From contig JBEWZL010000272.1 of the NCBI GenBank assembly GCA_045837725.1, positions 1 to 64,000 on the forward strand: a DNA stretch of 64,000 nucleotides, given 5' to 3'. Positions 5,472 through 27,910 of the stretch are shown in pieces. The position numbers and the translations under genes were made by a program. The DNA comes from Vermamoeba vermiformis. Taxonomy: Eukaryota. A model generated the notes under the pieces. That model saw nothing but the letters and a program-made list of their open reading frames with translations. It did not search any database and was not told the DNA's origin. How positions within the stretch are numbered: position 1 is the first letter of the stretch; each line of letters opens with the position of its first letter.

Positions 5472-7937
5472 TTAATGCAACCAATCAGGAAATTCATCAC
5501 TGTGTGCCTTAATATATCTAAATATGCGATTTGTAGATTCTAAATCAGGAAACACTCTCGTCAAGAACGAGAACGGTAAATCAGTAAATATTAATTTCCT
5601 TTCGGTGCAGCAGATTTCGTAAAACTTTAGGATACGAAATTTCCATTTGCGAAAGAATTCTCGTCGGGCTGGAGAAGCGCTGGAAGGGCCTGTGTCTTTC
5701 CCGTCAAAGTCGTCGCTCATAGCAGCCGCCAACTTGGTCACATTGATTTTGCCCAGGATTTTAAACAACTTGTCGTTGACTTCGATCTCCACCGTCCTTA
5801 GGGCCATATTCGGTTTCTCCTCCATAATTTCGGTACGAAAACCTCCACAGAGGGTGCTAACAATCCCACCAAGGTAGAATAGTTTCAACTTGATGATTAC
5901 GTGAAGCCCCAGCTGAGTTTGAAAAAGTACTGACATTCCGTCTAAGCCATCGGTTAAATGCTGCACCAACGTGTCTCTTGCAACCAAACTAAGACTGAGG
6001 TGTGACGAATTGAAAAATTTGACAGCCACAGAGTCAGCTCCTTCTTTGACACCAGCCACATCAAGTTCCATCGAAGAGACGACCAAATCGTATGAAGACT
6101 GTGCAAATTCGCAATTACGGAGGCCAGAAAGTAGTTGACTGGAGGCACCTGCAGCGACAGGTAAGAAAGCTTCATAAAAAAGTTGCAAAAACCTTACCGG
6201 ATTCGTGTGTTATCAGGTCAGTTCCCGTTAGCTTTGGTTTGATCTTTACATCAGCCTTGACCTTATCTCGAAGAAGAAATTGCTTGTTTTCGTAAGTGAG
6301 TGCAACGATCATTGGGCGCTCGTTTGCATTTTCCACATCGATGCCAATCCCGTGAACGTGAAGTCTCTCCAGATGTTCTCGCAATGCAATGATATATCGA
6401 TGAGTCCGCCTTGCAACAGAGTCAGGAGAGAGGTCTTTGTTGTCCAAAAACCGTTCTCTCCTTTCTAATTTTAGGAGTTGCTCTAAATAGAAATACGTTA
6501 AAACCGGTATTACTATTTTTGGATTTGTTTTCGAAACTTACCTTCTCTTTTAGTTCTCTTGCTCTCGCGAGAGCTGTTTGACTTTGAACGATTGGATTTT
6601 TTCTTTTTCTTCTTTTTTTTGTTCTTCGTATCTTTGGCATTGTTATCGCTCAAATCTGGCTCTGATTCTGGCTCATCTTCCTCGGAAAGGACGGTACGGA
6701 CATTTCTTGGAACATTCGCTTGTGTATCACTTAATAGCTCTGAAAATGGTCAGTGATAAATAAAGGAAGACTGCATAATAGCTTACCAGGGGAGGTTTCG
6801 TGATCGGCTGATTTTTCTTCTTCACTTCGATTTGTATTGTTTTGGTCTTCAAATGAGATGAATCAATAAATAAACATTAAGCCAAGGTAAATACTTACTC
6901 TCACTGAGGACCGACTCTGGATCCGGCTCACTTTTTTCTCTTTCATTATCGTCAATTTCCTCTTTGTCCTCGTCCTCTTCGTCGTCCTCTTCGTCCTCCT
7001 CTTCGTCTTCTTCTTCTTCTTCCTCCTCCTCCTCTTCATCTTTGTTTTGGTCGTAGTCTTCGTCGGTGGGAGGAGGGACATCTTCGGAGTTATCAATAAA
7101 GGCAAGGTCGTCGGCATTTGGCTCTTCATGCTGGTTCAAATCATTCCAATCTTCTATCATGCCACGTACCGATGTAAGAGATATTTTCTTGGTTCCTTCT
7201 GGGACGTCATCTTCGACGTCACTTTCGGCTTTCTCACGAGAAAGTTGCGAGGTCTTCTCCTTGGTTTTTGTCTTTGTTTTCGTGACTATCGCCTCTGTGG
7301 CCTCACCGTCTTCATCAGAGAGATCAATATCACTAAAATCTGCATCGATGTCAGAAAACAAGAGTAAAATTTTGCTTAGGCAAATTCTAAGTACCTTTAG
7401 GTTCGTGAGTAGCGGCTCGCCGAGGCATAACTCTTGTTTTTGCACTCTAATATAGATGGGTTAGTCATATTTTGGCGCGAATTGGTCTGTCATTAGCTTA
7501 CCTCAGTACTGTTTGAGGGTTTGTTCCGTGAGCCTTTGGCCAACTTTTTCGGCGGTGAATTATTCGATTCCAAAGCCTTCTGAGGTGACGATTTGTTGGA
7601 TATTGACTTCTTGGGCGAGGACTTCTTGGGCGAGGACTTCTTGGGCGAGGACTTCTTGGGCGAGGACTTCTTGGGAGGGGGCTTCTTGGGCGAGGGCTTC
7701 TTCGAGGATTTCTTTGGCAACTTCTTGGATGATAGCTCGCTTGAAGCAGATTTTTTTGACACTTTGGGGGATTGTTGCTTCGACCCAGAAGCAACAGTGC
7801 TGGAGCGTGAAGGAGACGTTCGAGAGCGAGTTGCGACACCGGGAAAGAACATGCCCTTAACAGCAGCCATACAATCCAAGCCCGACTAAGTGATTGAATT
7901 TAGTGCGATATGATTGCCAAAGCAAAAAACTTACCAT
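5472..7937 (-). CDS. Conserved element protein X (copy A): SPKK repeats, acidic tract, conserved C-terminal helical domain
   Basis: ATG|GTAAGT at 7937. Exons in ORFs 7493..7879, 6849..7445, 6172..6447 and 5472..6188. C-terminus KLKLFYLGGIV...FFRKWKFRILKFYEICCTERKLIFTDLPFSFLTRVF aligns with ORF 16383..18437. Confidence 0.7.
7605..7705. repeat. 15-bp coding tandem repeat (GACTTCTTGGGCGAG)n encoding SSPKK
   Basis: 4 perfect and 2-3 degenerate units visible. Translates KKSSPKKSSPKK on the minus strand. Confidence 0.9.
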
Positions 7938-8078
7938 TGTTGCAAGTACGAGAAGTTGATGAGTTACGTTTCGATTCTGAATAAGTAACAATTAACTTAA
8001 AATCGCGCTGGCTTTAAAAAGAGCGGGCTTACACACTATTGGTCAAATAAACATTTTTTTTCTATATCTTTTAAACAA

Positions 8079-10660
8079 TCACACACTAAACTTGATAAAT
8101 TCCTCTCGCAGCAAATCAATGGCCTTCTCGTCTTCTATGTATATGACTTTGGCTCTTCTTGGTAGGACCCTGCGTTGAACTGGCGTCAATTGCTTTGAGG
8201 GCGGGATGATAGCAGGATAGAAAAAGGGTCCAAAGCTGTCAAGCGGGAGGTCTCTGCGGGGTCGTTCATGAACTTGCGCTAACAATTCGTTGTTCCATTC
8301 ATAAGAAAATAGGCTTGGAGGATAAACGTTTTGCGGAGTAATAGCTCGTGGATGGAAGCGAAACCTGCGTAAGAAAATAAGTATCTTTGCGCAAAAACTT
8401 TGAGAGTTAACTTACGGGCGATGAGCTAAGATATGCTTCATGATACTGATGGTATTATCGATGCCGTATCCTCCTAGATATAGGCGTGGCCCCGTCGTGT
8501 TGAGAGAGACATTGCGCGGATCCACCTCCTCGAAGAAATCAAGAGGAGATATAAATATATTGACCAGGCAGAGGTGACGTAATGCAAGCTGGTTTAAACC
8601 ATGCAAGTCTACGTATACACCTGGACAGTGCGATTCAAGCTCTAGCAGGTGAAATTCGGCAGGAAAGTTTACACCACGCAAAGATATTTCCCAGGCCCTT
8701 GTTGATTTGTCTTCTCTGGGAATTGGCAGACGCAACCCAACCAATCGCGGAGAAGCTGCAAAAATCTTGTTGATCACGGCAACAGTTGTGGCTCCCATCG
8801 TGTTGTACAGATCAAGTTCTTGCCCAAGAGCAAGATGGAAGTGAAGAAAGCGCAGGTGCCTCCACTCGTGACTGGCAAATCCATACGACACTAATTGAGT
8901 TCTAATGTCGACGATAGCCAGGGCTTGAAGAGAAGCGACACAAGCCGGAAACATCTTTGCGGCAACAGGAGGATCAACATCCTCAAAGCGGAGTTCGAGC
9001 AATTGACCGAAACTGGGAAGTGTTAGTTTAACGTACCAGTAAAAATTAATTATTTACTTACAAGGCACTCGCAGAATTGTTCATTGACTTGCCTGTCGGA
9101 TCCAAGCTCACTCGGGTCAGGTAGCAACCACGACACGCTGTCGAATCAATAGGGTGGATCGCACCAAAGTCGGAAAGGCGAATGATACAATCTTCAACTT
9201 CTAAAACCGAATACACGTGGTTGTTAACGGTTCGGTAGACGTGCCTTGGATCGTTGACAATGTTGATGGCATTAACCGGCTTGGGCTTAGTTTTCGGTGG
9301 GATGGCACCTTCATTAAGCAGAATGTTAGAAAGATGTAAAATAAATTAAGGACTTCATACTTAATTGGATTGGCTTGCCAACAGGTTCCTTGTCAGGAAC
9401 TGTTAGAACTTCAAGTGTTTCGGGTTCACTGTCTTGGATCGGTGAAGCAACGTAAGTCGGTGATTCCTGTACCACTAGATTAATCATGGTAAAAATAATT
9501 TTAAATTACTTACCGGCATTTCTTGTGCCGGGCTGGAAATTGAGGATGGGCTGATAGGGCTACTAGGGCTGGAATGTGACGCCTGAGAATGATGGGGGCT
9601 GGCATGGACTTCGAAGAGATCAATCGAATTTGAAACTTCTTCGCCCGCCGAGACAAAACTTTGCTTCTCTTGGGGTACTTCGACGCGAGCTTTCTTCGTG
9701 ATGGTTTGTGCCAATTCCTCTCCCTTTCTCTTAGGGTGGTACGTAGGACATGAATACAGGAGGTCGCAATTCGAGTGCTGGAAGATGAAACGCCTCGTAG
9801 CCAAATCCGTTGATATTCGGCAGGAAGTCTACCTCGGTGAATTTATTGGCATCAGGAATTTCGGTCGTAGCGCCATCAGTGCCTAATAACATATTAGAAC
9901 GCCGTATTAAAATCGCTATTGTACTAGCCGTTACTTACCTTTACTTTCGAATTTGGTTTCCTTTGCTGTGTATTGCGAGAACAAAGGGACATCATAGCGA
10001 CAATTTTCGGTTGAAATGACCGCCAAAAGGGATTCCAAGGACTTGGTGGAAGTCCAGTGACCGTAGTGGTAACGCATCGCACACCAGAGTTTTGCGTGCT
10101 CGGTGTGGGTCACGTCTCCGCCTTCCGCGCGACTGGCGCCCTTAGTCATGTTGGGAATGATTACGTTGTCTCGGGCTGACCGCAATATCTCGGGAAACGT
10201 GCGCATGAACTTGACGAATCTCTGCCAGGCGACGGATGCGAGGCTAATGCCGAGGTGTTGAGCTATGGCAGCGCGGTACGACTTATACCAGCGAGGGTAC
10301 ACCATTGTGCGCTCTGGACGGGGGGCTAGCATTCCGTGGAAGTCAAAAACAACGTAGTAGAAGAGGAAATCCGCTCGGCTGCTGAACATGAAGTATTCCA
10401 AGCTATCGTGGAGTTTCTGCACGTAAGCATTGAAATCTCCTCCAGGCACTGACCGGTTTCTAGCTAGTACAAGGAACTCTACAAAGGTCACGATGTTCTG
10501 TTTCACATCCGGTGACTTTTTGTTATTCTGTAAATAAATAAAGTATTAGTATATAGTTATAACGATTTAATATATAAATACGCGAAATAATATTCGGGCT
10601 TATTACATTCGTGTGCACAGTAATAGTAATAAATAAAATTTTTAAAACAGATTTTACCAT
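8079..10660 (-). pseudogene. Element A gene A1, multi-exon hypothetical protein with one apparent frameshift (~9735); Leu-rich C-terminal half
   Basis: ATG|GTAAAA at 10660. Exons in ORFs 9931..10506, 9484..9804, 8412..9002 and 8079..8285. Frame breaks at GTACCACCCTAAG; removing one C gives VPPKRKGEE. Confidence 0.5.
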
Positions 10661-10877
10661 TTCAGATTTAATTGCAACAAGAAGGATATAATAAATATAT
10701 ACTACGGTAATTCGTAGTATCGATAATATTACAAGCGGATTTAAGCTCTTTTGGAGACTCAAATCCGGATTTGCAAGTACGAGCAGCTTTTGGCCGCAAG
10801 GAAATTACTAACGAAGTCTTGTGGACTCGCAAGCAATTAAAAAAATAGGTGCGGATCACTTTTGTAGTCAACTGATA

Positions 10878-11080
10878 GTAACGTGCCACGGCATCAAAGC
10901 CGCTCCAGCGCGAGTTATTTCGGATTCAGCCGATGCGTGAAGTTCGCATGCGTCAGCATGCATTTAAGCTCAACAGCGCGACCACAAGGGTCTTATTTGC
11001 ATTGATTATACAGCCGACAGTAACGTGCCACGGTCGCCAGCGCCGTTCAGCGCGAGTTATTTGGATTGAAGCTGATGCGA
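10878..11080. repeat. Two ~60-bp direct repeats upstream of the element A genes
   Basis: GTAACGTGCCACGG...CAGCGCGAGTTATTT...GATGCG at ~10878 and ~11020. Confidence 0.75.
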
Positions 11081-11351
11081 CTTTAGATGACGCATCAGTT
11101 CTACTCAAAGGGTCAATTTATATACCAGCATAATGGATCAAACATGAATTTTGGTAAGTGCACTAGATAATTGTTTGATCCAGGATTTGGATTTGAACGA
11201 ATAAATTAATTTAAATAAATTAAACATTAATACAGATGACTAACGATTTTATTAGGTTTTGCATGGAAATAGATCACGATCCCGACTGTTCGCGCGCGCA
11301 ATTCTGTAATTCGGTAATAAATAAATAAATTTTAGTAACTTGCACAGTATT

Positions 11352-11733
11352 TTTTAGGAGATCGTCTCCGCGCTGGAGACGACCTTTACGGACTTGGTTT
11401 TTTTAGGAGATCGTCTCCACGCTGGAGACGACCTTTACGGACTTGGTTTTTTTAGGAGATCGTCTCCACGCTGGAGACGACCTTTACGGACTTGGTTTTT
11501 TTTTGCAGATCGTCTCCGCGCTGGAGACGACCTTTACGAACTTCGTTTTTTTTTGGAGATCGTCTCCACGCTGGAGACGACCTTTACGAACTTAGTTTTT
11601 TTCGCAGATCGTCTCCGCGCTGGAGACGACCCTTACAGACTTAGTTTTTTTTTGCAGATCGTCTCCGCGCTGGAGACGACCCTTACAGACTTAGTATTTT
11701 TCCCAGATCGTCTCTGCGCTGGAGACGACCCCT
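11352..11733. repeat. Palindrome array 1: 8 units, 49-50 bp period, TCGTCTCC-N5-GGAGACGA plus GGACTTRG(T)n linker
   Basis: Stems start at 11362, 11411, 11460, 11510, 11560, 11609, 11659 and 11708. Confidence 0.95.
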
Positions 11734-11792
11734 GGGTACATTGGGTTTTATTGCAGGTTGTCTTGGATGTGAGTGTGGGTTTGGGTACGGGA

Positions 11793-11820
11793 TTACCTAA
11801 GCAAAATTTTGCTTAAGTAA
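11793..11820. other. 28-bp near-perfect palindrome at the A/B junction
   Basis: TTACCTAAGCAAAATTTTGCTTAAGTAA, one mismatch. Confidence 0.8.
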
Positions 11821-12285
11821 AATTCTACCAGGACTTTTGTTTATTTCTGTAACTTTTTAAGGCTAGCCCTATATGGCCAGGCCCTTTTACATATATGAAT
11901 AGTAACATAACAATATGAAAGAGATTCATCAATATGATATCATGGCTCTGAGATCCAGAAGCTAGCCAGATGCGTCAAAGCATGTAAATATGCCATCTTT
12001 GCAAATATGGTATGGATCAATAACAATTCACATGAATATGCTATGGTTCAAGTATGAGCTGATTCTAAAATGTATGAGCTGAGATCCAGAACTGGTGCCA
12101 TGCACACTGCCTTACATTCTCAAGAGTTGAACTTTTTAGTATTTTTTACAATGATAGCCCTTCACATTGTTGCATTCACAAAGTCTACTAAGTGATGCTA
12201 GGTCTTTGATAGGAATCTTTAAATACTTGGGTAATCTGCAGAGTAAAGCAACAGATTTGTTTATTTTTGAAAGTTAGCCACAGTT

Positions 12286-15200
12286 TTAATGTTTATTTTC
12301 AAATTTGAGATACAATTGCCATAATTCACTGTCTGACTTTGGCATAAACCCCCCACGCTTCTTTGCTGAACGCGTTTCATCGAACAAACCAGTTTCAAGA
12401 ATTTTGTCACGTAAACTTCCTTGTGAGTACCTTGGTTTCTTGGCCTTGCTTCCTGGGTGTGATATCAAGTGAAACAAACAGTGCAGGGCCAACTCTTTTT
12501 TTGCTGAAAACTTGCTGAAGTGAGGGTTATTGTAGACAACAGTGTGCACCAAAGCGCGGTAAAACGTGAAGTCAAATATTGGCTGATCTCCAAAAAGGCT
12601 GATTGTTTGATCATCTGTCAGTGTTTCGAGTTTAGTTGTGGAATCATTGTAACAATAACACCAAACTAAAGTTGAGCTATCGTTCATGCGATGCGTCCAA
12701 AAATGGTTGATGCCAGGGTAAGGCAAAATCCTCAAATCAAGCTTTGTTATTTGTTTTGCTAATTGTATCTTGATGAGCTGCTCACTAAGATAAGGAATAC
12801 GGCTATCTGCCTGAGGGCAAACTAATTTTGCTTGTTTGTTCATCTCGGGAATGACTTCTTCACGTATTGATTTCCATGCTTTCAAATAGTGAAGGCTGTG
12901 AGAATTGAAACTTTGTGGTCCAGAGTAACTGCAAATCAAATTAATGAACTTCATTGGGGTGATGCTGCTGTAATCCACGATGTGTTGCACTTTGGATCCA
13001 GGGAAACAAGGCATTGTTTCTTTGCTGGCAGCAACACTGAGCCATGTGTTATTTTCTGCACCAATAATTGACGAAATATCTTTCCATAGCAAATTGAGCA
13101 GGTTGGCAGCGATAGTTTGCAATTCAGATTCAGGCATTGATATGTTTGAAATATTTTGGGGATTGGCAATAACAATGGTCATTCTTTGAAGCACAGTTGG
13201 TAGTGCATCCCACATCTTATCAGGTAGAAGTAGTCGCAGGTACTTTCTAGGCAGAGGGAAGCATCTAGCTCCAATGACAGGGCTTGGATCAATGGCACCA
13301 ATTGCATCATCACCGTCTTGAGGGTCATTTAGCATATCAATGAAGTCTCGTTGAGGGTAAGGTGACTTTAGAACACTGTACTGGACAGGATCTGCAATCG
13401 TTATCATTTCAGGGGCAATGTAGAAGTGACCATATTCATTCAAAGCTTGCGCCATGTTCATTTCAGAAAATAAAGCAGGGTGCTTCAAAAGGGAAACAAA
13501 TCCACACCAAAGAAATCGCAAGCAGTCCTCCAGAATTATTGCAAGTCGTTGTAAGCCCTCTGAGAAGAAATCTGCACAAGCAAGAGCATTTCTTGTTCCT
13601 TTAAATCAGTCAGCACTTAAGCTACTGCCTAAAAAAAAATATTAACTTACCATCAGGCATGAATACTGAAGAATAGATGGAGAATAAGAAGGAGTCAATG
13701 GCAGTATACTGGATTTTTGCTGGAAGGACAACGCTTTTTGATGGGATGACTTGCAACGGACTAAATTGAATGCACCACTCTGGGATTTGCTTTTCTGCTA
13801 TCAATTCCGAGAGCCAGTTGTGCACATTAATAAATTCCTTTGCTGTTGATTGAAGGAAATCATAGACGTCCTCAATTCTCTCCTGTGATGGATCTGCCAA
13901 CGTCACTTCAAGACGGCAACCATAGTTCTTGGAAGCTATGTTGCTGAGATATAAATTGGCTATGTCTTTTTCTTCTCGAGCAAACAGTTGTTCAGATTGA
14001 CCTTTCAACTTCTGACGCAAATGTGATGGAAATTCAGTGTTCTCTGGGCATGAGGCATTTACTCTTTCAAAGGGAAATAGCAGAGTAGCATATGAACTTT
14101 GACTCATGGGCATGTTGTATCTGAATTCTTGGCTGCTTCTTGCATAGGCTTTGATTTCTGAAATTGGTGATTCTTTTGACTTATGTTTCACATCCAAGCT
14201 CTGCAGTAATGGAGATCCCAAGTTCGAGAAGCTAGTGTTATGTTGACCTGGATTCTTTTTGTTGTACAACCAACAGAGAGGGGATGTAGAGATCTTCTTC
14301 AAGCTTTCGAGAAACAAAGGATTCCATGAAATGTTTAAGCAACTGTCATTTTCCAGCTCAGGATCAGGGCTAAAAGAACATATTAGCTTTTTGTCTATCT
14401 TACAAACACGTTGCTTACAAAATATCAAATGCCAAGTCTTGCAGGTAATGCAAATCAGATAGCTTTACTCGATCTATCTCAAAGGAAGCAGATAGATCTC
14501 TTAAGAATGCAGTGGCATCTTCTTTACTATGCAGAGTTTCTTTATCACCATAAATCTGCGTGACAAAAAGAACTTCAACTCTGTTACCAATAATTTAGCA
14601 AAAGGGCAATATATTCGCAAGCTAGAACTCACTTTTTTGCCTTCCATTTGAAATTTTTAACAGCTGCATCAATAGCTTGATAAACTCCTGCATGAATTGC
14701 AGTAGAGAAGCCAGGCACACCAGCAGCAAAAGCGATGTCAACTTTATCAGCAGTTACTTTTGGTGCTGTTGTTGGAACAGCCAATTTGACCGAATTAATT
14801 GCTGCGTTAAAACATTATTCTATACTCTAGCTGGTTGCAGGCACTTACACTGCCATATAACTTCGTGCCAAAAAGAGCGGAGGAAATCCTGATCATAATC
14901 TTCATGGCTCAATGCAGGAAAGCACACCCATATTATAAACCTGTTTTTAACCTCCCTACCAAACATTAACATTGTTATTATTAATTCAACCATGCAAGCA
15001 TTAACATACCCAAGCTTGAAATTTAATTTCGAGGACAATAGACCTTGCTTCACAGTTACTTTGGAACTGGGCATCCTTAAGTTTGGCTTTGGATAAAGGC
15101 ACACTGACATTTTTTCTTTGACGAAGGAAAGCTTTGAAGAATACAGAACTGTTGCATCAGCATCAAGTTGGCTGTAAACAGTGACTGGAGTTTTGATGTA

Positions 15201-16326
15201 TGGTAAGCCAAAGAAACTGCCATCATCACTAATCCAGGTTCTAATATCATTTTGGTAATCCAATGCCTCTGCAGCCTAAAACATGAATTAAGTCAAAAAA
15301 CCTTTAAAACTATTTAGTACCTCTAGAGACGTCACCATATGGTGATGTTCCAAAGTGTAGACTGAAGGAGGCCAAGTTGTTGGAGGAATAAACTCTTTAA
15401 GCATCTCTACACGTGCAACCTCATCATCACTAGCATAGCCTCCATCATCATTTTGTACCCTTGAAGGTGCTGTTATTTACTTGGCTTGACATGTAGTTTA
15501 ACACTTACAGTATTAAAGGCACCAATGCATCCATCAACGCCTCTTTTGAGTGGAATGCCTTGTTTGCCCAGTCTAAAAACATAGGAACATCATGCACAGG
15601 ATTATCCTTCTCTGTTTCCAAAGCTGGAAGGGCAGCCTGCTTGCTAAATGCTTTGTTTTGGTCACTGCCAGCAGATCTCTCCTCAGCGTCAGATTCCTTG
15701 CTTACTCTGCGTCCTGCCGGTGCTATTAATGGGTAGCATATTGAGGATTGGCTTTGACTGCAAGAGGAGCCTTTAGGATCATCATTACTTTCATCGGAGA
15801 AGATGGTGCTTGCAGATCGGATCGAAACATCATCAACAAAAAAATCAGTGGAAATATTGCTGCTGTCACTAAATATGGTGCTCGCAGAGCTGTCCTCTGG
15901 ATTGCTATCAAAACTAGCCACCTACAAAGCAAGGATAAGTAACTGAAACTTAATAAAGTTGATAAAATTCTACCACAGAAGATTTTATTAATTTTATCGA
16001 AGGAAATTTCACCTTTGTCTCTGGCTCAGTTTGCTGTGTGTCTATCTGGATAGCTTTCTGTTAATATTTCTTGTTGCAGCTACTACAAAGATAAAAAAAA
16101 ACTTTTTCCAATTACTGCCTACCTCACTAAATATCGTGCTTGTTGAACTTTCGTCTTGATTGGTACCACTAGCAGCTTGCTACAATGCAGAGGTAAGTAA
16201 TTGAGACTAAGGAAATCTCCCAAGATTAAAATTAATAAAATCTACTGCGGTAGATTTTTGTAGCTGACCTCTCTTTCGATGCGAAGGCGTGCAATGCGTT
16301 CCACCAAGCTTTCAAATGGCTCGTCC
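12286..16326 (-). CDS. Large spliced protein with Rep_trans-like motifs (element B gene Y); exact start uncertain (~16326-16383)
   Basis: ORFs 15505..15921, 14820..15263, 13622..14428 and 12286..13521 linked by introns. Motifs: QLDAD, LQDLAFDI (14424-14438), EIKAYARSSQEFR (Tyr 14144-14146), YGCRLEVTL (RLE 13907-13915). C-terminal KKELALHCLFHL matches KTELRTVCIFHL of copy A. Confidence 0.7.
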
Positions 16327-16382
16327 TATTAAAAAAAATAATAAGCAAACAGAGATATTAAAAATTTTGCATTACTTGCACA

Positions 16383-18437
16383 TTAACAATTTTCTGGATG
16401 CGTCCAAAAGCTGGGACTAAAGTTAATCTGTTCTAAATGCTTAAAAACATCCTCAACTTGATGGGGTTGCACAAAGTAACGTGCTAAGAATGAATAGGAC
16501 AGTGAAGAGAACAGCAAAATAGGTCTTTTCTCACAGACAGCGTAAAACCTAGTTAGCTGGTTCTTCCAGTGCCTGAATACATCCTTTCCTTGTGTTACTT
16601 TCGATATTGCAGCAAGAATTTCAGAGTCATGACCACTGAAGACGCGTTTATACTTGAGATCATTGACGGTGGTTTTGAAGAAATCCAAAAGTGCAGCATT
16701 TACTGCAGGTTTAATCTCCTTAGCAACTTCATTGTTGATCTCTTCTGCATTTTGACGGTTTTCCACTGCCTTTGCTTCATTTTCAATTGTTTTCTTGCTG
16801 GTAAGCTTTGCAGTCAATTGAGTGTGGAAGTCTTTTGCCTTCTCATGAATGATCCAACCGATTGCAAAGAGTCTTAGTTTCTTTGCTGCAAGAATTTCAT
16901 GCTCAACCTTGCAAGCACCATGTGATTTTTCAAGAACACCTGCAAGAAATTCATTGATTTTCACTTCTGTGGACAGCTCATCTTTCAAGAACTTGTTCTT
17001 ATCCGTGGATTTGAATAGATTATGGAGAAGATCAGGAGAAAATGCCAGAGTTTCAGCTTTCTCTGCATCAATGGTCAGTTTATCCTTGCCTTTCATTACT
17101 TGAGCATAAAGCGACTTGGCAAACACAGCTGATTTCAGCTGTTTTACTTGCTCTGCATTGAGAAGGTTGTTTGTTGCTGCAGATAGGATACTATCTGCTT
17201 CTTCTTCCTCCTTGTTAACAATCTTCTTCACCACAGAAGAGGCTGGAGGCTTTTTTCCACAAGCAACCATAATATCAATGTTCTCATGCGGTAAAAGGTT
17301 AAGGTAAGACTCAGAATACATATTGCCAATTCCAAGCAGCGAATATTTGGCAGATCTCTTCTGAATTCGAAGGTATATGCCAAATTTGGAGAAACTTCGA
17401 AGAATGTCAATAGCAACCTTGGAGGCTCTCTGTGCAACAGTTGCCTCCTCACCTTGGCTCTGAAAGGCTTCAAGGGTAGATAATTTCTGGCTTTGCTTAA
17501 TAATCTCTTCGAGGTGTTGCAATGGCTCGGTCGCGTTATCATGAACAATAGTTGAAGTTTGTCTTCCACTATTATCAATGCCAAAGTCGAGCTGCAGGCC
17601 ATCATCCTCAAGGGCATCATCATCATCCTCCTGAACTGACTCCTGACTTAACTCAATGGTAACTGGACGTTTAGATCTTGCAGCTGCCATTGCATCCAGA
17701 TTCGCCTTTCGCTCAGCAATTTCATCTGTCTTTTGTCTCTTGGATGGAGGCTCGTCATCAGAGGGTTCAGAAGAATCACGAGACCTTTTGCGGGATGTCT
17801 TTTGCTCATTACTAAGTGCAGATTTGCACTCAACAAAGAATTTTTTCATTTCCGCAATGATTTCAGCATGTTTATCAACAAAGTCCTTCTGCAACTTAAA
17901 TTGCTCGACTAAAACATTTGCAATTTGACAATTTTTATCTTTGCACAACATAAATAATGAAGAGTAGCGAACGAGCGAATTTGCACTCATTTTCGCTGCT
18001 TTAACGAGGGATGTAACATCTGAAGGTTTTTGAATATCATCTTCAGCAAGTCTTTTTTTAATTTGAGCTTTTTTGCTCCTTAATTTTGTATATAAATTAT
18101 AAAGAGAATAATTTGACACCAAAGGGGAATTTTTTGACGTGACATCCAGGTAAAAACCCAAGATGGAAAATAAATATACAACTTTAATGGTCTCTTTACA
18201 GTAATATAACTGTAAAATAGGCACAATCGTTGTGGTAAATATATTATCATATAATTTGCTTACTTGGTCAAATGAGTCATCCACATCTGAACTTGTTGAA
18301 GATGCCATCTGCTCGGAGAAGCTTATTTCTTCGCTGGAACTGGAGGACATTGTTGCGTGAGTGTTGAATAATGCTTTGTGTGTGATAATATCAATATAGA
18401 GATACAAACAGGATTGGATTCTAAAAACCCATGACAT
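16383..18437 (-). CDS. Conserved element protein X (copy B), 684-aa ORF, helical/coiled, NLS-like PPSKRQK
   Basis: Uninterrupted ORF (alternative ATG at 18350). C-terminal KKLRLFAIGWII...VFRHWKNQLTRFYAVCEKRPILLFSSLSYSFLARYF is homologous to 5472..6188. Confidence 0.75.
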   Translation of the reverse strand: MSWVFRIQSCLYLYIDIITHKALFNTHATMSSSSSEEISFSEQMASSTSSDVDDSFDQVSKLYDNIFTTTIVPILQLYYCKETIKVVYLFSILGFYLDVTSKNSPLVSNYSLYNLYTKLRSKKAQIKKRLAEDDIQKPSDVTSLVKAAKMSANSLVRYSSLFMLCKDKNCQIANVLVEQFKLQKDFVDKHAEIIAEMKKFFVECKSALSNEQKTSRKRSRDSSEPSDDEPPSKRQKTDEIAERKANLDAMAAARSKRPVTIELSQESVQEDDDDALEDDGLQLDFGIDNSGRQTSTIVHDNATEPLQHLEEIIKQSQKLSTLEAFQSQGEEATVAQRASKVAIDILRSFSKFGIYLRIQKRSAKYSLLGIGNMYSESYLNLLPHENIDIMVACGKKPPASSVVKKIVNKEEEEADSILSAATNNLLNAEQVKQLKSAVFAKSLYAQVMKGKDKLTIDAEKAETLAFSPDLLHNLFKSTDKNKFLKDELSTEVKINEFLAGVLEKSHGACKVEHEILAAKKLRLFAIGWIIHEKAKDFHTQLTAKLTSKKTIENEAKAVENRQNAEEINNEVAKEIKPAVNAALLDFFKTTVNDLKYKRVFSGHDSEILAAISKVTQGKDVFRHWKNQLTRFYAVCEKRPILLFSSLSYSFLARYFVQPHQVEDVFKHLEQINFSPSFWTHPENC

Positions 18438-18637
18438 TTTTGGCGGGTTTATTTTTGGGTGTCAAATTATTAGGTTTTGAGTGTCAAAAGTCCCTTTGTG
18501 GACTAAAAACAGACATAATTAAATGAGAATAGGCCAAATCAGAGTCAATATAGCTGAAAAACTACTATTTATGTAAAACAAAACAAAAACAACAAAAGTG
18601 CCAAAAAAAATGATTGAAGCAGCGTCTCCCTTGGGCT

Positions 18638-21600
18638 TTAGTTCTCTTTTGCCTTCTTTGCTGCAGGCTCTTCATCAGCTTTTGGTGGTGGACGCACTGG
18701 CTTTGTCTTGGGTTTAAGAAGGCGCGTGAGAGGAGCAATACTAGGAGGTGCCAGTTTTGGAGGGGAAAAGATGAAATTTTCTGCTCGTGCTGCCGACTTG
18801 CAGGCTTTGACCAATTCTTCATTAGTAAGACCATGTGCAGCCAATAGTGAGAGTAATTTCCTTGCAAAAATGGTTAATACTTGAAAACATTGCAGCTAAA
18901 ACTTACTCGACAATTTTAATCCAAAAATCAAGATGGACAGTCTGCTTTGAAGAGCAGCACACCTCCACACCCTCAAAGCCCCACTCTGCAGAGCATTCCA
19001 AGCAGCGAGATTCCTGATCTTTTCTGAACAAGAGATGGATAAGAGGAACATAGCACTTGCTGCAATGAACGTATGCAAGGGAAGAAGCAGCAAACTTTGT
19101 TTCAGGAGCAGTGGAAAGATATGCCAACCACTCTGCTAAACAGTGGCCAAACCCGACAGTCTCAGCATTTGCAGGAAGTGCATGGTCCTGCACTTGCAAC
19201 CAAAATAACCACGATCCAAGATCCACAACTGGAGATGCTGTGAATCGCTTGAAAAATGATGTCCAAGGGTAATAACTATACCCAAGGACAGTGGCATTTT
19301 GGTTGATTCCCTCCTGTAAACATTACTCCAGTTAGTAGAGACAAAACAATGTTAACTAATTGCTTACATCAGTGTCAGGGTAGTAAGCAAGCCAAAATGG
19401 GTTAGCAGTAGCAGGGATGTGAAGCACTTCACCAGGCTTAGCAGTAACTATGTTGAAGTTGTTTGCTGGATCATCCTTGGCTTCCTGGGCTGAATTTTTT
19501 GGTAATTAAGAAACAGGCTCCACATAAAATATGTTTAAAACTTACACCAAGGGTTTAATGACTTAGATTCAGCAAAAATGAGCCGCCCATTTGCTGTTCC
19601 TGCATGAAACAAAACAAGTGGAGCTTTGTGTGGCACCATCAAAACTGCTGAAAAGGCATGGAAGTTGAGCCACGTGAATTCATTGACACAACCAGCCAAT
19701 GCACTTGTGTTGGAAGCCATTTGCTGTGGAAGAACACCATGACTCAATGGAGAACCAAAAAAGATTGCTTGGCAGCGCTTGATTAGCATCTCAGGCAGCA
19801 CTTCACCCTCTAATTAGCAAAGGGTGTTAATAATAGTAAAAATAAAGATAATAATTAGTAAACTAAGTACTTACGAGAGACACAGCCAATCCTGGGTTCT
19901 TCACCTGCTGGCACTTCCTTTGTGAACAAAATGCTTTCATTACCCGTGTTCACAAAGGTAACTGCACTTGAAGGCTTGTAACTCTCGTATAATAAACGAG
20001 GAAAGACCTCTGGCTTCACAACACTGGTGTGCTGCAGATTTAAAGCCTGAAAAAAAATAATTAATTGGTTTTTTTCAAATTCATTAACTTAATTATGATT
20101 ACCTCTTCCCACGTTACAACAGCTTTCTCCCCAACTGCATTGACCAGTGTGGTGCACAGGCAATGCACATCAGCCAAAGCCTCCTGTTGGGGTCGAGAAT
20201 ATGCTTTGAAATCTTTTTCTCCTCCCTCAGCAGCAACTTGCTCACCATAGTACATGATGATCTGGGAACCTTCCCCGTAGAAGGTCATGTCATCGAGTTC
20301 AAGGAGACCAATAATCATGTCATTTGCTGTAGAATGAGGTGAGATTAGAAGCAGAGGAAGAAAAGTTTGTTCAAAACTTACGTGAGGCAATGAACCTTTG
20401 AAGGCAGTAAAACACTGCTGCCAAGCGTTTGGTTTTGAGTGGGGGATACTCCTGTACAAGCTAGAATTAGTACGCTGTAAATCTAATGATAAAATCTACT
20501 GCAGAAGATTTTTATAAATTTTATTAAAAGGAAATTTCAATCGCATTTGATTGTTATTTAGCCTCTATTGCTGGCAATATAAATATAAAGAGCTGTATTA
20601 TAAGGCAAACAAATAAAAGAAACAAAAAAAAACTGTTTTGGATCTGGTTTTGGATCTGCACAAACAGGTTTCTATCCTTACCTCAATAATCAGCGAGACT
20701 TTCTCATGCAAGCCTTTGAAACTTGGCTCAGTAAATTCAAAATTGCCAGCCAAGTAGTACGCTGTCGATTCACTAGTGCTGACGAGAATGCTTTTGAATG
20801 GTAAAAGCAATTGGGTGCCCAGTCTTGCTTCAACTTTGAAAAGAAATTAGCCAATATGTATATAGGGTCATTAATAACTTACTAAGAAGCAAGTATTGCC
20901 CCAAAGAGGCAATAAAATCACTTCGCCATGCCTTGTCCACCAAGGATAGAAGCAGCACATCAAGCTTTGCGTCTTTCAACGCTGCTATTGGCAGGGTTTT
21001 TCCTTTGACAGTGAAAATTTTAAGGGCAGGCTTGGCATCCTCTTCAAACAAGTCCACAGAAGCTGATTCGTCATCTTCATCTTGCTTCTGCGCATCTGCT
21101 TTTTTCTGGATTGGGGTGCCTGCTGTGTTGAAACGGCCTGGTTGACCATCATCAGGCTCTTGGCTGTTGTCTTCTGTGTTGGAACTGCCAACATTTTTTT
21201 TAGGTGTTCTTCTGGCACGACCAGGAGTTCCACCATCGTACTTTCTTTTTTTCACTCTCTTTTTTGGAGTTGAGCTGGTCTCTCCAGCTTCAGCTTCCTC
21301 CTCATCATCAACATCTATCGGGGTCCCTGGAGGGGTGTTATTGTTGGCAGGAGGTAGAGTTTGGACTTGTTTTTGCGGAGTCTGTGCATCCACTTGCAGC
21401 TGCTGATTTGTTACTTGTTGATCAGCAACAACCTGCTGTTGCTCCTGGACTGATGGCTGTTGCTCCTGGCGAGTCGCCTGATTTTCCACCGGCTGTTGGA
21501 CTTGTGCAGCAGAAGCTAACTGCTGCTGAGGCTGCACTGCTCCTCCTTGCTGTTGCCCAGCAACTGCTTGTTGCTGAGGCGGAGCAGCAACTTGTTGTTC

Positions 21601-23097
21601 CTGCTGAGCAGCCACAGGAACTGCAGGATTTTCTGCAGCCAGTTGCTGCAGCTCAAGTTCAGAAAAAGTGAAGTTGTCCATCTTCTTTTCCCATGCAGAC
21701 CAACTTAACTGTTGGTCAACTCGAATTTGGCACAGTTTCCTTTTAAATGCAGCAAGGTCTTTGCCTTGTGCCTCCTATGTGCGAATCATTCAGTTTTTTT
21801 TTTAATAATTTAAAATTGAAAAGGAACTCACCAGCGCATTGTAATGCTTGCGAAGCTTGTCAAAGGCCTTCACCGCATGATCAACAAACAATTCAGCCAT
21901 AATGCTAACATTTTGGGCTGAATTAACATCAGCACCTAAAAAAAAGATTTAGAATGGTGAAATACCTCACACTATTTGCTTACGTTTGTGGTGAACCTCC
22001 TGCCACTGTGCTTGCTGTCGCTCCATGAAAATCTTCTGATCTTTCCTTGGCAATTTTGCCAAGCACTGCAGGTCAGTTTTCAGAAAAGGGCTAAAAGAAT
22101 ATGTTATTCTTAGTTTTAGAGGTTTAATATTGGTTATTACTTACACTTGGAAGAACTTTTTCCTTGCCTCATGGTTGGCATGGTAAGTTGAAAGCTCTTT
22201 GAGGACATTATAATCCAACGACCTCAGCTGCCATTCAACATCTTTTAACAAATGGTTAAAAAAGATCTAATTAAAACAAAAATCAACTTACCATGAAGTT
22301 TGCGACCAGCAATAGCATCCCAATAGTTTTTGGTTCGATTGCCTGCGAACCAATTATCTTGGGTATCCCCATAAGCTTCATGAGCCAAATGCTGCACCTG
22401 GAGGATCTTTTCCAGGTAGGACATCTTACGCACAGTCTGTTCTTTAGACTGGATGCTGTGTCCTTCAGCTCGCATCTCCACCTCGGAGTCAAAAGCATAA
22501 AGAAGGATTTGATGCTCCAAATTCTTCTTGTGCAGATCACACAAGTAAATCAGAGCTTCAAATCGATGCTGACCTACAATAAACTGTTAATAACCTAAAT
22601 AAAGCAAAAAAAACAACTACTTTTACTTACCTGCGAAGATGGCAACCTTTTTTATCTTGCCATTTGTCACAATGACACCATGGAGGGATCCTTGGTTCGA
22701 ATCCCAACCATGCTTCTCTATTTTGTTGATCACTCGATTGAGACCAACACGGTTTAGAGTGCGGATGTTGAACCTAACACGAAAGGAAATTAGAGTCAAT
22801 AATATATTTAAACTGACAATACTTACGCTCTACCAACAATAACTGACTCCTTCTTATTTAGTGGGTGGCAGCTTTGCGTGATGGTGAAGCGTCTGAGGTG
22901 GTTTTTGCACACTGCTGCGCCATCATCAATTATTGACGTGGGGATGCTACAAGGGATTAGTTAGGCTTGAAAACAATAGATTGGAGTTACTTACGAGTAC
23001 TGTGCCTTCTCTTTGCAGTCTGGGACGCAGCAATTTGCCTTGTTGAAGACCTTGGGATTTGCCTTGAGTTCGGCACACGTGACCATTTTCCACTCAT
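18638..23097 (-). CDS. Multidomain protein: C3H zinc finger, ParB/Srx-like domain, Gln-rich linker, degenerate JmjC/cupin, C4 zinc finger
   Basis: Manual splicing of ~16 exons stays in frame from MSGKMVTC (23097) to the stop at 18638. Reads CCVPDC..CKNH; FNIRTLNRVGLNRVINKIEKHGWD..VAIFAG|QHRFEAL; RKMSYLEKI; LAKLPRKDQ; AKPGEVLHIPA..FW; CSKCYVPLIHLLF..CLEC. Confidence 0.7.
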
Positions 23098-23669
23098 TAG
23101 AGAGTTGGTGTGACTATTTAAAAAGCTATTAATTTATATGTAAAAATATATAGGGAATATTGTTTAATTAAAATACATTGAATTAGGAGGAGCTGTGAAA
23201 AGAAAAAAGTCAAATCTGACACAAAAAAATTAAATTGCAATTTTACCCTCCAAAATAACCTTGTAAAGGTTAAAATATTATTATTAAAATTATTACATAG
23301 TTAAATTAATTATTTGAGCAATACTTACCAGAACATTCTGTTTCCAATACTGATCTGAGATCTCCACGTAAGATCTCTGTTGACTTTGCACAGCAGCTGC
23401 AAGGTCTGCTGACATAACACGTATATTTGTGTTACTCATGATAACAGCAAAATATTGAAATGAAATAGAACCGTTGGAAAAAAGATTTTGTTTGGTTGTG
23501 AAATCTCCCTAGAGAGAAAAAATTATTCTGGGGAGATTTTGTCAACCTTCTGCAACAGTTATACCCCCCTTATATTGACTCAGTTGTGTGGGTTTTCACT
23601 CTCAAACCTTTTCACTAATTTTGCACATTGCAGTCAGCAGGGCCATTGTGCAACCTGCATCCAGAATAC

Positions 23670-24790
23670 CTTTGGATGCGAGTTCAGATCGGGGACTCAT
23701 GTTGCTCATCTCGTGCCTGTTGACCTGTTCTATTGAATGATACTGCAGATAGCTCAATATGAAGCACACATCACAATTTAAGCCACATGAAATCTCACAA
23801 CACTAAAAATAATAAAATTCTACTGGGGAAGATTTTTATTAAGTTTATTAACCCGAAATTTCTCCTTTCTACTGGCCCAGCTACTTATGCTTTAATATAG
23901 AGAGCTCCACATCAATTCATATTATTTCTGCCATCAGGTATAGTAAGCAAAGCAAATAAAAAATTGACTTTGGATCGGATTCAGATCTGTGCTCACCTTG
24001 CTAGTTTGGTGCCTGTTGACCTTCTCTTTGCCCATATATTGCAGACAGCTTGATATGAGGTATTGGCAACCCATTTGAGCAGCATTAAATCTCAAAGTAA
24101 GCGCAAGAAAAATCTACTGCAGAAGAATTTTATAAATTTTATTCGAATGAAATTTCTCGTTGCTGTTGGCTTTGTTTATTACCTAGTGACTCTAATTTGT
24201 TGGTGCTCGTGAGTTTAACTATACTGATGCTTTCTATTAGGCAGATTTAGTCATTGGTTGTGAAAAAATATCGGATCGGTTTTCGAAGAACACTGGAATG
24301 TGTCAACTTTCATAGCTATACTTCCCTTAATACCCAGTGCTTACCAGCAATGGCCTAACTTGTGAGTGTTCCTATTCCTGCACAATTCCACCCTGTGAGA
24401 TTCACAGCAGGCTCTCTGGGATTGGTCCAAAAACTTTTTGTTTCACAACTTTGGTTCACAACAAAAAAAAAATAATTACACACGGGCTTCCTTGTGCATT
24501 CATTTGGTTGCCTTTCAACTAACAACTGCAGGGACCGGGTGGAGAGTTGCAGAGCTTCTACTTAATAGGATGCCTAAGTCTCGGACCTTCTTTCTAAAAC
24601 TTAACTTCCCCGCCAAGATCTTGCTGCATGGTGGTCTTTGCACTAGTAGATCGACAGTGTGGTGCCTTGCGTTGCCTCTAGCACTGCTACTGCATGCTAG
24701 GGTCCTGGAGCCCTAGACTAACACTTCCTGTGATGTGATTGGTCCAAAAAGTTTTTGTTCACTCTTTGAACCACAACAAAAAAATTTCGC
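23670..24790. repeat. Degenerate ~300-bp-period repeats in the upstream non-coding region of element B
   Basis: TGGAT..TTCAGATC..GTGCCTGTTGACC..TGCAGAYAGCT at ~23672 and ~23971. AAAAT(T)CTACTG..GAAGA at ~23815 and ~24110. GATTGGTCCAAAAA..CACAACAAAAAA at ~24420 and ~24737. Confidence 0.65.
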
Positions 24791-25244
24791 AAAAGATTTT
24801 GTTTTTGTTTATCTATTCTTGCAGCCACAACACCACCACTCTCATGCACAGACAAGCACAGTGTGTTTCCCATGGTCGATTGCTTGGTGCACTCCTGTGT
24901 GGTAATACACTCTGCGTGTCTGTGCACTCCTGCGTGAGACTGTTTGCCCATCTGAGCCACGGTTGCCAGGTAAGTCACTTTTTAATTTCTTGAGCAGTGG
25001 CTATACCTGAAATAGTATGCCACTGTTTTCCCATTAATTACATGATTGGTTTCAATTTTTTACGACACCAAGGCTAATTTTTGGATGTCAAAATTTTTTA
25101 TTCCAGATTAGCTCAAATTTATTTCTTTTACTTGATTTTTTCACTTGTGCCACTAGGCACTTGCCCAATTAATTGTTTTATGGGCCAAATTCATTATACA
25201 GCCTTTTTTTCTGAACTGGCACCTCGATGTGCTAATCCTGGATG

Positions 25245-26040
25245 AGCTGTTCCAAGTGGAACCAGCCCTTTCAGACTTAGCCTGCCCCAGTACTATGTTT
25301 CTGCGGGGAACTAGCCTCAATTGGGCTTTGTTTCCTCACCCCTGGTTCCTTGTGGAACCGACCCTAGTTTGGACTTTGTTTCTTTCCAAGGGTCGGTTCC
25401 TCATGGAACCGGGGTTTGCAGGACTTAGTTTTTTTTCACCCCCGGTTCCTTGAGGAACCGACCCCTGTAGGACTTAGTTTTTTTCAGGGGTCGGTTCCTC
25501 GCCGAACCGGCCCTTTTTGGACTTTGTTTTTTTTTGACCCCGGTTCCTTGAGGAACCGCCCCCTCTTGGACTTTATTTTTTTTCAAGGGTCGGATCCTCA
25601 TGGAACCGGGGTTTGCAGGACTTAGTTTTTTTTAACCCCCGGTTCCTTGAGGAACCGACCCCTGTAGGACTTAGTTTTTTTTAACCCCCGGTTCCTTGAG
25701 GAACCGACCCCTCTTGGACTTTATTTTTTTTCAAGGGTCGGTTCCTTGCCGTACCGGCCCCTCTTTGGACTTTATTTTTTCCCAAAGGGCAGTTCCTCAC
25801 AGTACCGGGGTTGCTGGACTTAGTTTTTCTTGCCCCCCGGTTCCTTGAGGAACCGCCCCTTGTTTGAACTTCAATTTTTTTAACAGGTTGGTTCCATGCG
25901 ATACCTCCCCCTGTTAGACTTTGTTTTTACATAGGACCAGCACCACACAAACCAGTCTTCCATGTGTCTGTACCCCTGGCTCCTTGTAGAACCACCCCTT
26001 GTTCAACTTTAGCTTTTCAAAGGGGATGTTCCACATTGCA
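25245..26040. repeat. Palindrome array 2: ~12 clear units plus degenerate flanks, ~49-50 bp period, CGGTTCCTTGAGGAACCG plus GGACTTWG(T)n linker
   Basis: Cores near 25343, 25394, 25443, 25492, 25541, 25591, 25640, 25689, 25739, 25790, 25838 and 25889. Confidence 0.92.
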
Positions 26041-26461
26041 CCAGGCAATGTTTAACTTAACATTACTTAACTTACTTTAGTCTACAGCCTATCTTTGGAC
26101 CGCAGAGCTTTGCTTTCACTGCCTTGCCAAATAAAAACACCAGTTGTAACTGTTTTATGTAAAAATAAAAAAAACTTCAAACAAACTCTTGCTGTTCTTT
26201 TCTATTTATTGTTTTTCATACATTTATTCTAAGTAAATTAAAGTTAAACTTGTCTCTTAGTGTTTTTATTTTGGCATGCTTTTCGATGCAAAAGTGACGG
26301 CAAAAAGACAAAAAAAGTCAAAAATTTAACAAAAAAGGGGTTTAACTGGACTTTAAACTCTATAACCCTTAAATTTCTATAACCCAGAAGCCTACTATAA
26401 TACTTAGTCTTACGACTTGAATTATATGAGTACTAGAGGATAGGTCCGTTCATGGCGGCAT

Positions 26462-26532
26462 TTCCATGCATGGAGCTACGATGGGAGCATGGCCCATTTG
26501 GTCACCCATGTCATGCGCCTCCATGCATGGAA
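26462..26532. other. GC-rich hairpin: 14-bp inverted repeat TTCCATGCATGGAG / CTCCATGCATGGAA
   Basis: Arms at 26462-26475 and 26519-26532. CATG-rich loop within AT-rich surroundings. Confidence 0.75.
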
Positions 26533-27323
26533 TTATTTTTTTCAGGGGGAGCCCAGTTGGCCTGGTATCCTGATTTGCAACGGATCGGGATCGGGATTTT
26601 TCTTCCTGATTGGTGCCCAATCGGGATGTTTTCAAATTTTGAGCAAAGCCATTAACTTTTTTCTGTGTTTTTCATGAAATTTACAGGCTTTTTATTTTTA
26701 CATCGTTTTTGCTGGAAAATACAAGGTTTTAAATATTGCCCTTTTTCGACAAAAACACCTATTCCTATATCCCTAACTCCTAGGAAACAGTAATATGTCA
26801 GTATTAAATTTTCCATTAATACGACCAATCAAATATTCATAAATCATTAAATATAAATCACCAAAGATTGATCCATAGCATTATTTTAATTCGTAATCAA
26901 TTTTAAATTCGAATGTATAAATCCAAATCTTTGCTTAATTATGGTTTTTATTTAAATTACAATATACTGACATATTATTTATCATTACAGAAACATGTAA
27001 CAATTGATTTGCACGATCAAATTGCCTTGGTTATTGGTAAAAGAACGAGAACTGCAATCACGTAAGAGTTATTAATCTGTTCGTTTTATTATATATGGCA
27101 CTAATTTAGTTAGCATACAATTCTTTGAGATCTGTCGCGTATTCCAGCTCGTAAGTCGTAACAAATTACTATCAGCACTAATTAATAGAATTCATAGCAC
27201 TCAAAAATGATAATGATCACGTTCATGCATTAAGTCGGCTCACTCGAACAACCGCAACGGTCAGTAGAGGTAATTTTTAATGGTTCGAATTTTGTTTAAC
27301 GGGCAATATTAGTTGCTATGGGT

Positions 27324-27610
27324 CGCATTGTCCAGTCATTGGACGGACCCTCTGTGCCGTGCCTTCAACGTCCTCTTCTTCTCAAAACCTGCGTGACTTG
27401 ACTTGCACTGTCCAAGACTTGGACGCTTAGTGTTGCGTGGCTCGCACCTCCCGGTTATTGGTATCCTCTACACCGTGCCATCAGTGTGCCACTGTCCAGT
27501 TATTGGACGGTCCCTCAGCGCGTGGCTCGCACCATCCAGTTATTGGACGGTCCTCTCAGTGCGTGGCTCGTACCGTCCAGTTATTGGACGGTCCTCTCAG
27601 TGCGTGGCTC
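27324..27610. repeat. Palindrome array 3: ~40-41 bp unit, ACCGTCCA-GTTAT-TGGACGGT plus CTCAGTGCGTGGCTC
   Basis: 3 clean units at 27490-27610 and 3 degenerate units to the left. Confidence 0.9.
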
Positions 27611-27910
27611 TCCTATCATAAAGTTTAGTACACTTTATTTAATATTTTTGTTTCATACCATGCCATCTGGAAAATAGGCCAACCAAAATGGAGATGAGCC
27701 TGCTGGAATGTGCAACACTTCCTGATTTTTAACTCCAATCATGTGGAGGTGCTCTGCATGTGCAAGATTTTCATTTACATCTAAAGTTTAGAAAATCAGC
27801 ACACATAATGCTAATAATAGTAACACTTACCCCACTTGTTTGCATCCTTTGGTTGGGCAAATAAAAGCATGCCATTAGCACTGCCACCAAAATAGTATAG
27901 CAGCATTGAA
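27611..27910 (-). pseudogene. Truncated paralog of the JmjC-like part of the ParB-JmjC gene (third element remnant)
   Basis: Exons read YYFGGSANGMLLFAQPKDANKW | DVNEN..KNQEVLHIPAGSSPFWLAYFPDGM, versus LFHAGTANGRLIFAESKSLNPW | ..KPGEVLHIPATANPFWLAYYPDTD in copy B. Intron positions and phases are the same. Confidence 0.8.

Follow-up and report, generated by a model that had tools for sequence, protein, structure and literature searches.

The window analysed here is the first 64 kb (64,000 nucleotides) of contig C272 (JBEWZL010000272.1), a contig end in the 43 Mb, 309-contig assembly of the eukaryote Vermamoeba vermiformis (GCA_045837725.1). It contains two tandem arrays of palindromic repeats, A and B, each set just inside the fixed end of a large gene-bearing element. 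We read the arrays as subterminal repeats of DNA transposons that have one end, carry a telomere and are mobilised by a tyrosine nickase, and put the probability of this reading at roughly 55%. The architecture is strongly supported by the genome: the elements have a single base-exact end, outward-reading genes, and replace everything distal to them. They most likely represent a new class of one-ended telomeric eukaryotic DNA transposon. The elements are 12-15 kb long and contain introns, and their genes read towards the chromosome tip. Those of the window, with their arrays and termini, are as follows.

11350..11730, plus strand: array A, period 49, 7.7 copies, 92% matches; units of 49-50 bp with the dyad GATCGTCTCC-N4/5-GGAGACGACC and a T-run linker.
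25336..about 25928, plus strand: array B, period 49, about 70% matches; units of 49-51 bp with the dyad CGGTTCC-N4-GGAACCG in both orientations and a linker as in A.
11860..11898, minus strand: fixed terminus of family A, ending ...ATATATGA on the plus strand and beginning TC on the gene strand; target dinucleotide AT at 11899-11900.
26360..26399, minus strand: fixed terminus of family B, ending ...CTACTATA on the plus strand and beginning TA on the gene strand; target dinucleotide AT at 26400-26401.
1..11898, minus strand: element A (family A), distal end beyond the contig start; 99% copy on C21, exon identity 68-82% to copies on C56 and C270, gene order the same.
11901..26399, minus strand: element B (family B), 14.5 kb long; a copy at 97% on C265 and part of one on C123.
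11901..12097, minus strand: remnant, at the distal end of element B, of a common telomere-adjacent segment of ~1 kb, cut by the arrival of A; 76-86% identity to the distal segments of C226, C50, C163, C149 and C205.

On the centromere side of each array, similarity among copies breaks off at an exact base. Genome-wide there are 68 such termini (47 A and 21 B), while controls gave none. All 68 lie at most 26,399 bases (26.4 kb) from a contig end, with a median of 5,375. Every one of the 57 on contigs of known length of at least 60 kb faces the near end; the remaining 11 are on shorter contigs or on C272. Loose matches to the A pattern fell on the other strand in 2 of 49 cases. The flanks beyond the termini are all different (32/32 for A and 16/16 for B).

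Junctions were scored where the flank also occurs unbroken elsewhere in the stretches examined, which gave 39. The junction dinucleotide, AT or GT (RT, R being a purine), is that of the unbroken target in 34 of them, the third base in 17 and the fourth in 9. The element therefore ends before RT, which belongs to the target. Read on the gene strand, families A (TC) and B (TA) start after 5'-AY-3' (Y being a pyrimidine). Six more families follow the RT rule at every site (7/7, 3/3, 9/9, 10/10, 6/6 and 6/6); families C and D have a variable A run, and family E fits at one site of two. In two water metagenome runs, X2 (perhaps not an independent one) and X3, loose ends at 11900/11901 reveal different flanks there. 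A loose end at 19709 in X3 carries the terminus of the C302 family joined to element B at GT, a junction that follows the RT rule yet is absent from this assembly. Read mapping covered 11770-25320 (module B), which is free of the arrays, and DNA runs were handled as contigs. A terminal hairpin suspected by eye was rejected, as termini fold no better than shuffles (z about 0). A 9-mer terminus search gave background level only. When termini were clustered automatically, arrays and short motifs dominated the result, which was of only partial use even with masking, so the absence of further distal termini is not rigorous.

Subtelomeric, polar copies that are 97-99% identical on different ends, with arrays upstream of the first gene, might also be subtelomeric repeats of the Y' kind that have spread through break-induced replication or recombination, with arrays that are passive minisatellites or promoter elements; the swapping of the A/B scaffold described below implies recombination too. 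Recombination would not, however, fix the donor breakpoint, and donor ends are base-exact in about ten families and have 2 nt in common with the target. We consider this explanation improbable.

New termini sit inside the genes (C145, C239, C260) and arrays of older elements. At the telomere-anchored ends of C8 and C209 the older element has lost its distal part; DNA beyond the junction has therefore been replaced, not pushed outward. Telomere repeats (TTAGGG in this assembly) stand directly distal of elements on C8, C209, C164, C32 and C226. The ~1 kb segment of which 200 bases are left at 11901-12097 is common to the distal ends of the C226, C205 and C149 elements and to C50 and C163 (five aligned copies); C226 and C50 pass into telomere repeats at an identical point, and the contig end of C205 has two repeats. 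In the D, F', C149-type and B families the element spans fixed end to telomere, and polar head-to-tail stacks are present at telomeres. On C163 (L077, about 1345-1430) the internalised telomere-adjacent segment is preceded by ~90 bp with a G6/C6 hairpin and the word CTCACTTCGTTCG, features that we take to be typical of Helentron-type small elements. The subtelomeric stack of C260 holds a frame (L049:7939-8853, plus strand) resembling by eye a TET/JBP-type 2OG-Fe dioxygenase with an HxD motif, with no Pfam match.

Several termini contain CCCTAA-like words. The right end of C44 (G000:C44; L044, about 9715-9912) runs from a telomere tract through ~10 bases of an F-type terminus and AT into unique DNA, and is either a minimal terminus-plus-telomere unit or the product of healing at a CCCTAA seed inside the terminus. 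Such words, and the head-to-tail arrangement of intron-bearing giants at telomeres, as in the terminons described in the accessible part of PMC6431247, would suit terminon-like retroelements, in which an RNA is copied onto the chromosome end, its 3' end becoming the fixed end, and the hairpin and T-run arrays are RNA structures. None of the 55 hits to the reverse transcriptase domain RVT_1 falls in a mapped gene X element, though, and in 10500-28600 no Rfam family, hammerhead included, reaches cut-off, the 13 matches below it being hairpin noise. Since the genes read tipward, an antisense RNA of 15 kb would have to serve as template, and attachment is at RT dinucleotides, not at telomere repeats. 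This origin seems to us a shade less probable still than recombination.

The arrays themselves had been described beforehand, from the letters of the window, as having a 49-50 bp period and a common linker in the same orientation, and this holds: the linker GGACTTDGTTTTT (at most one mismatch) has 17 matches in the window, all on the plus strand, with 5 in A, 11 in B and one stray at 39613, against 0.61 expected by chance. The cores were called different. Their sequences are as described, but they are not unrelated: judged by their letters, the arms GATCGTCTCC/GGAGACGACC of A and GGTCGGTTCC/GGAACCGACC of B are homologous and differ in two adjacent compensatory pairs. The N5 spacer reported for A does occur but is not constant, with N4 in 163 and N5 in 67 of 231 units genome-wide. 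The placement of each array upstream of its own gene cluster was also correct, the distance to the base-exact terminus of the element being 0.2-0.6 kb. The dyads are tied to these clusters rather than scattered through the genome: A arrays lead to an A terminus in 36 of 38 cases (the other two to none) and B arrays to a B terminus in 9 of 9. A two-linker pattern has 112 matches genome-wide and none in the control; the 20 minus-strand array regions examined, among the matches listed, all lie no more than about 14 kb from their contig's right end.

With the linker fixed, the ~30-bp core of array B occurs in both orientations (27/32 identical when inverted, 18/32 direct). Single units form better hairpins than shuffles (z -5.2 and -4.3 for A, -2.1 and -2.7 for B), and the occasional formation, at the least, of hairpins or cruciforms is suggested by the variable spacers and core inversions. 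Because the arrays of about ten families, for all their different dyads, keep to one side and lie near the nick, we predict, with our confidence evenly divided, that they are family-specific recognition or loading sites near the nick. A promoter role is possible. A dispersed palindromic word, TCGACC-N5-GGTCGA, occurs with its neighbours dozens of times in the non-coding DNA between arrays and first genes at many chromosome-end loci (e.g. L073, L059, L079), and 10860-11120 of the window is a relative.

The preliminary description had compared the arrays to iteron or parS arrays whose specificity has diverged, as between incompatibility groups, which would make the elements plasmid-like; in favour of this the family-specific dyads and a ParB-like motif, seen by eye in B-type elements, could be cited. 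The elements are instead at eukaryotic chromosome ends, where the chromosomal DNA that they adjoin varies; the window comes from the subtelomere of a eukaryote with TTAGGG telomeres and introns (short, GT-AG, spotted by eye), not from a plasmid. A cognate ParB or Rep gene in each element was not found: the ParB-like motif is confined to B-type elements, its frames have no family match, and A has no such frame, so parS cannot explain both arrays. The plasmid reading is very improbable, and the iteron idea survives only as an analogy, that of binding sites beside an initiator's nick site. One B-type element, on C62, has a 508-aa single frame with a DGQHR ParB-like motif (L089:2472-3995, minus strand) and no Pfam, PHROG or PDB match.

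Two genes, X and Y, are the sole genes common to every mapped family. They lie in the window as follows.

1164..5362, minus strand: gene X of A, spliced, 5' limit approximate; DxD (exon 4144-4749), QxxGxK and DIGxD (3563-3760), KAY (3041-3319), RLE (2612-3022).
5472..7900, minus strand: gene Y of A, limits approximate; conserved C-terminal domain and acidic N-terminal part, clustering with Y of other elements; no Pfam or PHROG match.
12286..15921, minus strand: gene X of B; DAD (14823-15275), DLAFD (14418-14594), KAY and RLE (13625-14464); an open GT-AG splice path of ~1100 aa, not unique.
16383..18461, minus strand: gene Y of B, a 692-aa frame.

Gene X has 26 matches on 17 contigs, in 19 elements, all near ends and reading outward. 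About ten families can be distinguished; every one has a terminus of its own, and most have a palindromic array of their own as well. Pairing of arrays with X clades was drawn from complete or near-complete elements, in which a clade goes with a private array and terminus: A (45-50 bp units), B (49-50 bp), C (41 bp; C209, C164) and D (32 bp; C226). Further family arrays have units of 38/37 bp (C205), 41 bp with GTCCA/TGGAC (C221), 42 and 51 bp (C149) and 51 bp (C267, C302, C251); an array was looked for in the C260-left element and none was found. The tree of X, drawn without C251, C267 and C302 on account of their shortness, places A with C, C240 and C32; a branch of 1.97 (94/99) leads to B, and the tool warned of long branches. 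The co-variation of array and X that had been proposed is thus seen in that each clade has its own array and terminus, but the scaffold shared by A and B does not follow the X tree (subject to the long-branch risk), and A's clade includes a family with a different 41-bp array. A scaffold common to distant clades suggests exchange of array regions or retention of an old form.

Across 12 elements, X retains D-x-D, Q-x-x-G-x-K and D-[IL]-[AG], and across 40 rows K-x-Y and R-x-E; of these D, D, K-x-Y and R-x-E are invariant at 25-55% identity. Their order is that of Rep_trans, where pT181 RepC has FDAM, LDLAFD, RIYNK and RVE; X of element B carries LQDLAFD. The accessible text of PMC13107129 gives D46, D142, Y191 and E214 as the catalytic set of RepDE, describes Rep_trans as bacterial and extended to archaea, and reports an archaeal Rep-Arvir with KHY whose link to Rep_trans was seen by structure alone. 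A tyrosine, Rep_trans-like chemistry is on these grounds somewhat favoured for X. A first AF2 model of X was unusable (pLDDT 41), and one of P0002, a 61%-identical relative of B's X, gave pLDDT 81.8 for the second half of the domain. In a VIA ranking this half-domain model placed START/Bet v1 helix-grip proteins first (Z 6.3, root-mean-square deviation 3.5, 124 aligned) and RepDE 4cwe at rank 11 of 311 (Z 4.4, deviation 4.1, 104 aligned). Bet v1 and TBP belong to the same fold class.

Sequence searches placed X in no described family. A profile search of 1.84 billion representatives gave 30 relatives, of which one in ten looked up was named, as 'hypothetical protein'; P0030 hints that the range extends to a distant host. 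Scans of element exons against Pfam and PHROGs found no family, RepHel included; PF14214 had no match, with its control also silent. PDB sequence searches with X gave nothing significant, and phage tblastn and Atlas searches nothing. A metagenome contig scan with one exon was empty as well, and so were two word-seeded searches for longer relatives, these last being weak evidence.

We propose the following mechanism. Protein X would nick the donor at the fixed end on the gene strand, which is the TTAGGG strand, and is predicted to remain bound to the 5' end through the K-x-Y tyrosine. The nicked strand would be displaced until it runs off the chromosome tip, so that it starts at the terminus, ends in the telomere's own 3' end and needs no terminator or second end. 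The displaced 5' end would then be joined to a target 3'-OH after 5'-AY-3', and the C-rich strand filled in as at any telomere. A nick at the fixed end and joining after AY would give the junctions, polarity and replacement seen. Jumps would be survivable only near tips and in outward polarity, which would leave polar stacks. More tentatively, the arrays may load X or Y family-specifically, as dyads or extruded hairpins, and so keep co-resident families apart. The fuller proposition, in which ~ten co-resident families possess the first TBP-fold (Rep_trans-like) tyrosine nickase of eukaryotes, use one nick to place copies of themselves and their telomere on other arms, and have the arrays as family-specific address codes, we hold with slightly less than even confidence.

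Several observations weigh against the nickase reading. Junctions fit tyrosine and DDE chemistry alike, and the RT match is broken in 5 of the 39 scored. The termini are unstructured, unlike the usual Rep nick hairpins, and the variable A spacer is a poor fit to a rigid dimer site. Distal ends of the A and C families are not defined, and the telomeres of C209 and C32 were added at broken points; telomere repeats are missing from most contig ends, some of which may be breaks in the assembly. Module B yields very little RNA, with 7 and 11 reads in two RNA runs bearing the same species label, of about 13 million records each. PF02486 has no match in the genome (its control is positive in B. subtilis), and profile comparisons of X with Rep_trans stay within controls (14.9 against 12-24) or reach E 0.36, where the best 12 columns put RLE on RVE and the RepC profile is shallow. 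Foldseek returned nothing for P0002 at E 0.001 or better, and Z values of 4-6, for a model spanning half the domain, may reflect just a common arrangement. No helicase was recognised in the elements. The invariant D, D, E triad of X also suits a DDE-like enzyme.

That last point leads to the main rival. The same one-ended telomeric elements could encode in X a transposase of a new, metal-dependent and DDE-like kind. It would attach the 3'-OH of the element's C-rich strand to the target, after which a replication fork would copy the element out to the tip; the arrays would be transposase sites. It predicts the same junctions and polarity, accords with the unstructured termini, and has a precedent in bacterial one-ended telomeric elements, which use such enzymes according to the accessible part of bioRxiv 2024.11.13.623437. 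Against it stand the invariant K-x-Y between the second D and the E, the helix-grip sheet of the modelled half, with no RNase H fold heading the structure lists, and the lack of a transposase family match in the element exons. We judge it unlikely, well above the other alternatives, and continue to favour a tyrosine nickase.

No description of such elements, or of a eukaryotic Rep_trans, was found in the openly accessible literature, supplements aside; a genome paper may list them as subtelomeric repeats. Yeast Y' and HeT-A/TART form polar head-to-tail stacks of large elements at telomeres. So do terminons/Athena, as far as the available part of PMC6431247 shows. The present elements differ from all of these in having no reverse transcriptase, no hammerhead, outward genes, a base-exact DNA end and a 2-nt target rule.

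Bacterial telomeric transposons (PAST, Tn7-like, type I-E CAST) resemble them in having one specific end, the telomere as second boundary and replacement of native ends, and differ in their Tns/DDE-type proteins, bacterial telomere systems and two bridged ends in movement (bioRxiv 10.1101/2024.11.13.623437, accessible part). The elements described here belong to a eukaryote whose telomeres are TTAGGG; their genes are spliced, their enzyme is unassigned to any family, they join at RT and they carry palindromic arrays. The exons scanned gave no Pfam or PHROG match to a Tns/DDE transposase with protelomerase or terminal proteins.

Paramecium telomeric Helitrons are likewise of rolling-circle type, confined to chromosome ends with absolute polarity, and diverse in families, with internal satellites; in the portion of PMC13085455 available they encode RepHel, are bounded by two termini (LTS, RTS) and take telomere repeats as their insertion site. 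In the present elements a RepHel was not found, the terminus is single, and joining is at RT in DNA of any kind. Helitrons and Replitrons in general share oriented insertion at a dinucleotide and an exact end upstream of the gene (PMC13085455 and PMC10288648, in part). Helitrons have a 5'-TC start and an A|T target; here family A starts TC and family B starts TA, in both cases after AY on the gene strand. The present elements, unlike Helitrons and Replitrons, have no detected HUH/RepHel domain, terminal direct repeats or internal copies, and no second terminus of CTRR with hairpin, the distal boundary being the telomere or a cut by another element.

Rep_trans (PF02486; pT181 RepC, RepDE) and Rep-Arvir share with X the order D, DxAxD, (K/R)xY, RxE and a weak structural match to 4cwe, and Rep-Arvir, like X, has KxY and no sequence-level link to Rep_trans (PMC13107129, in part). 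X differs in its ~1100 aa with long inserts, in matching no hidden Markov model or other profile, and in its place at the ends of linear eukaryotic chromosomes.

The remaining features of the window are these.

8079..10545, minus strand: two further genes of A, common to the C family and absent from B; no family match.
18903..20495, minus strand: a cupin-like plus Cys-rich gene, named by eye; no Pfam match over cut-off.
20830..22830, minus strand: a Gln-rich frame and a ParB-like frame with a GQHR motif by eye; no Pfam or PHROG match.
26402..27900, no strand assigned: older remnants under B, comprising part of a different family (as far as about 26809), a stretch from a 41-bp-array family (27490-27610) and part of a B-type cupin/Cys gene.

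Gene X of B has 33-nt inverted arms in its 5' part, with 230 nt between them (15964-16259), with a related AT-rich motif at 20491, 23815 and 24109. The first host-like gene inward of the stack (28574-31133, minus strand) has vWA-like frames by eye and a weak zf-Sec23 match (E 0.033). Another 33-nt inverted pair, 97% complementary and 12.4 kb apart (46897-46929 and 59369-59401), possibly marks the ends of another element. Just inward of the left stack of C260, an RVT_1 domain within a 1396-aa frame (G000:C260:38546-39028) is probably an unrelated retrotransposon.

If the proposed reading is true, a class would be added to eukaryotic transposons in which no reverse transcriptase, DDE, HUH or tyrosine recombinase enzyme is recognised, and the second rolling-circle enzyme superfamily would be extended from bacteria and archaea to eukaryotes. 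The elements would be a eukaryotic counterpart of bacterial telomere-replacing transposons, showing that one-ended transposition is possible when copying is terminated by the chromosome tip. Since end, array and X allele differ from one to another of the many families, specificity can be probed by swapping them, and chromosome truncation or capping might profit from an enzyme able to join a long strand with a telomere cap at a dinucleotide. The one-ended telomeric architecture holds even if X is not Rep_trans-like. For this organism, the finding would mean that such elements continually turn over its chromosome ends.

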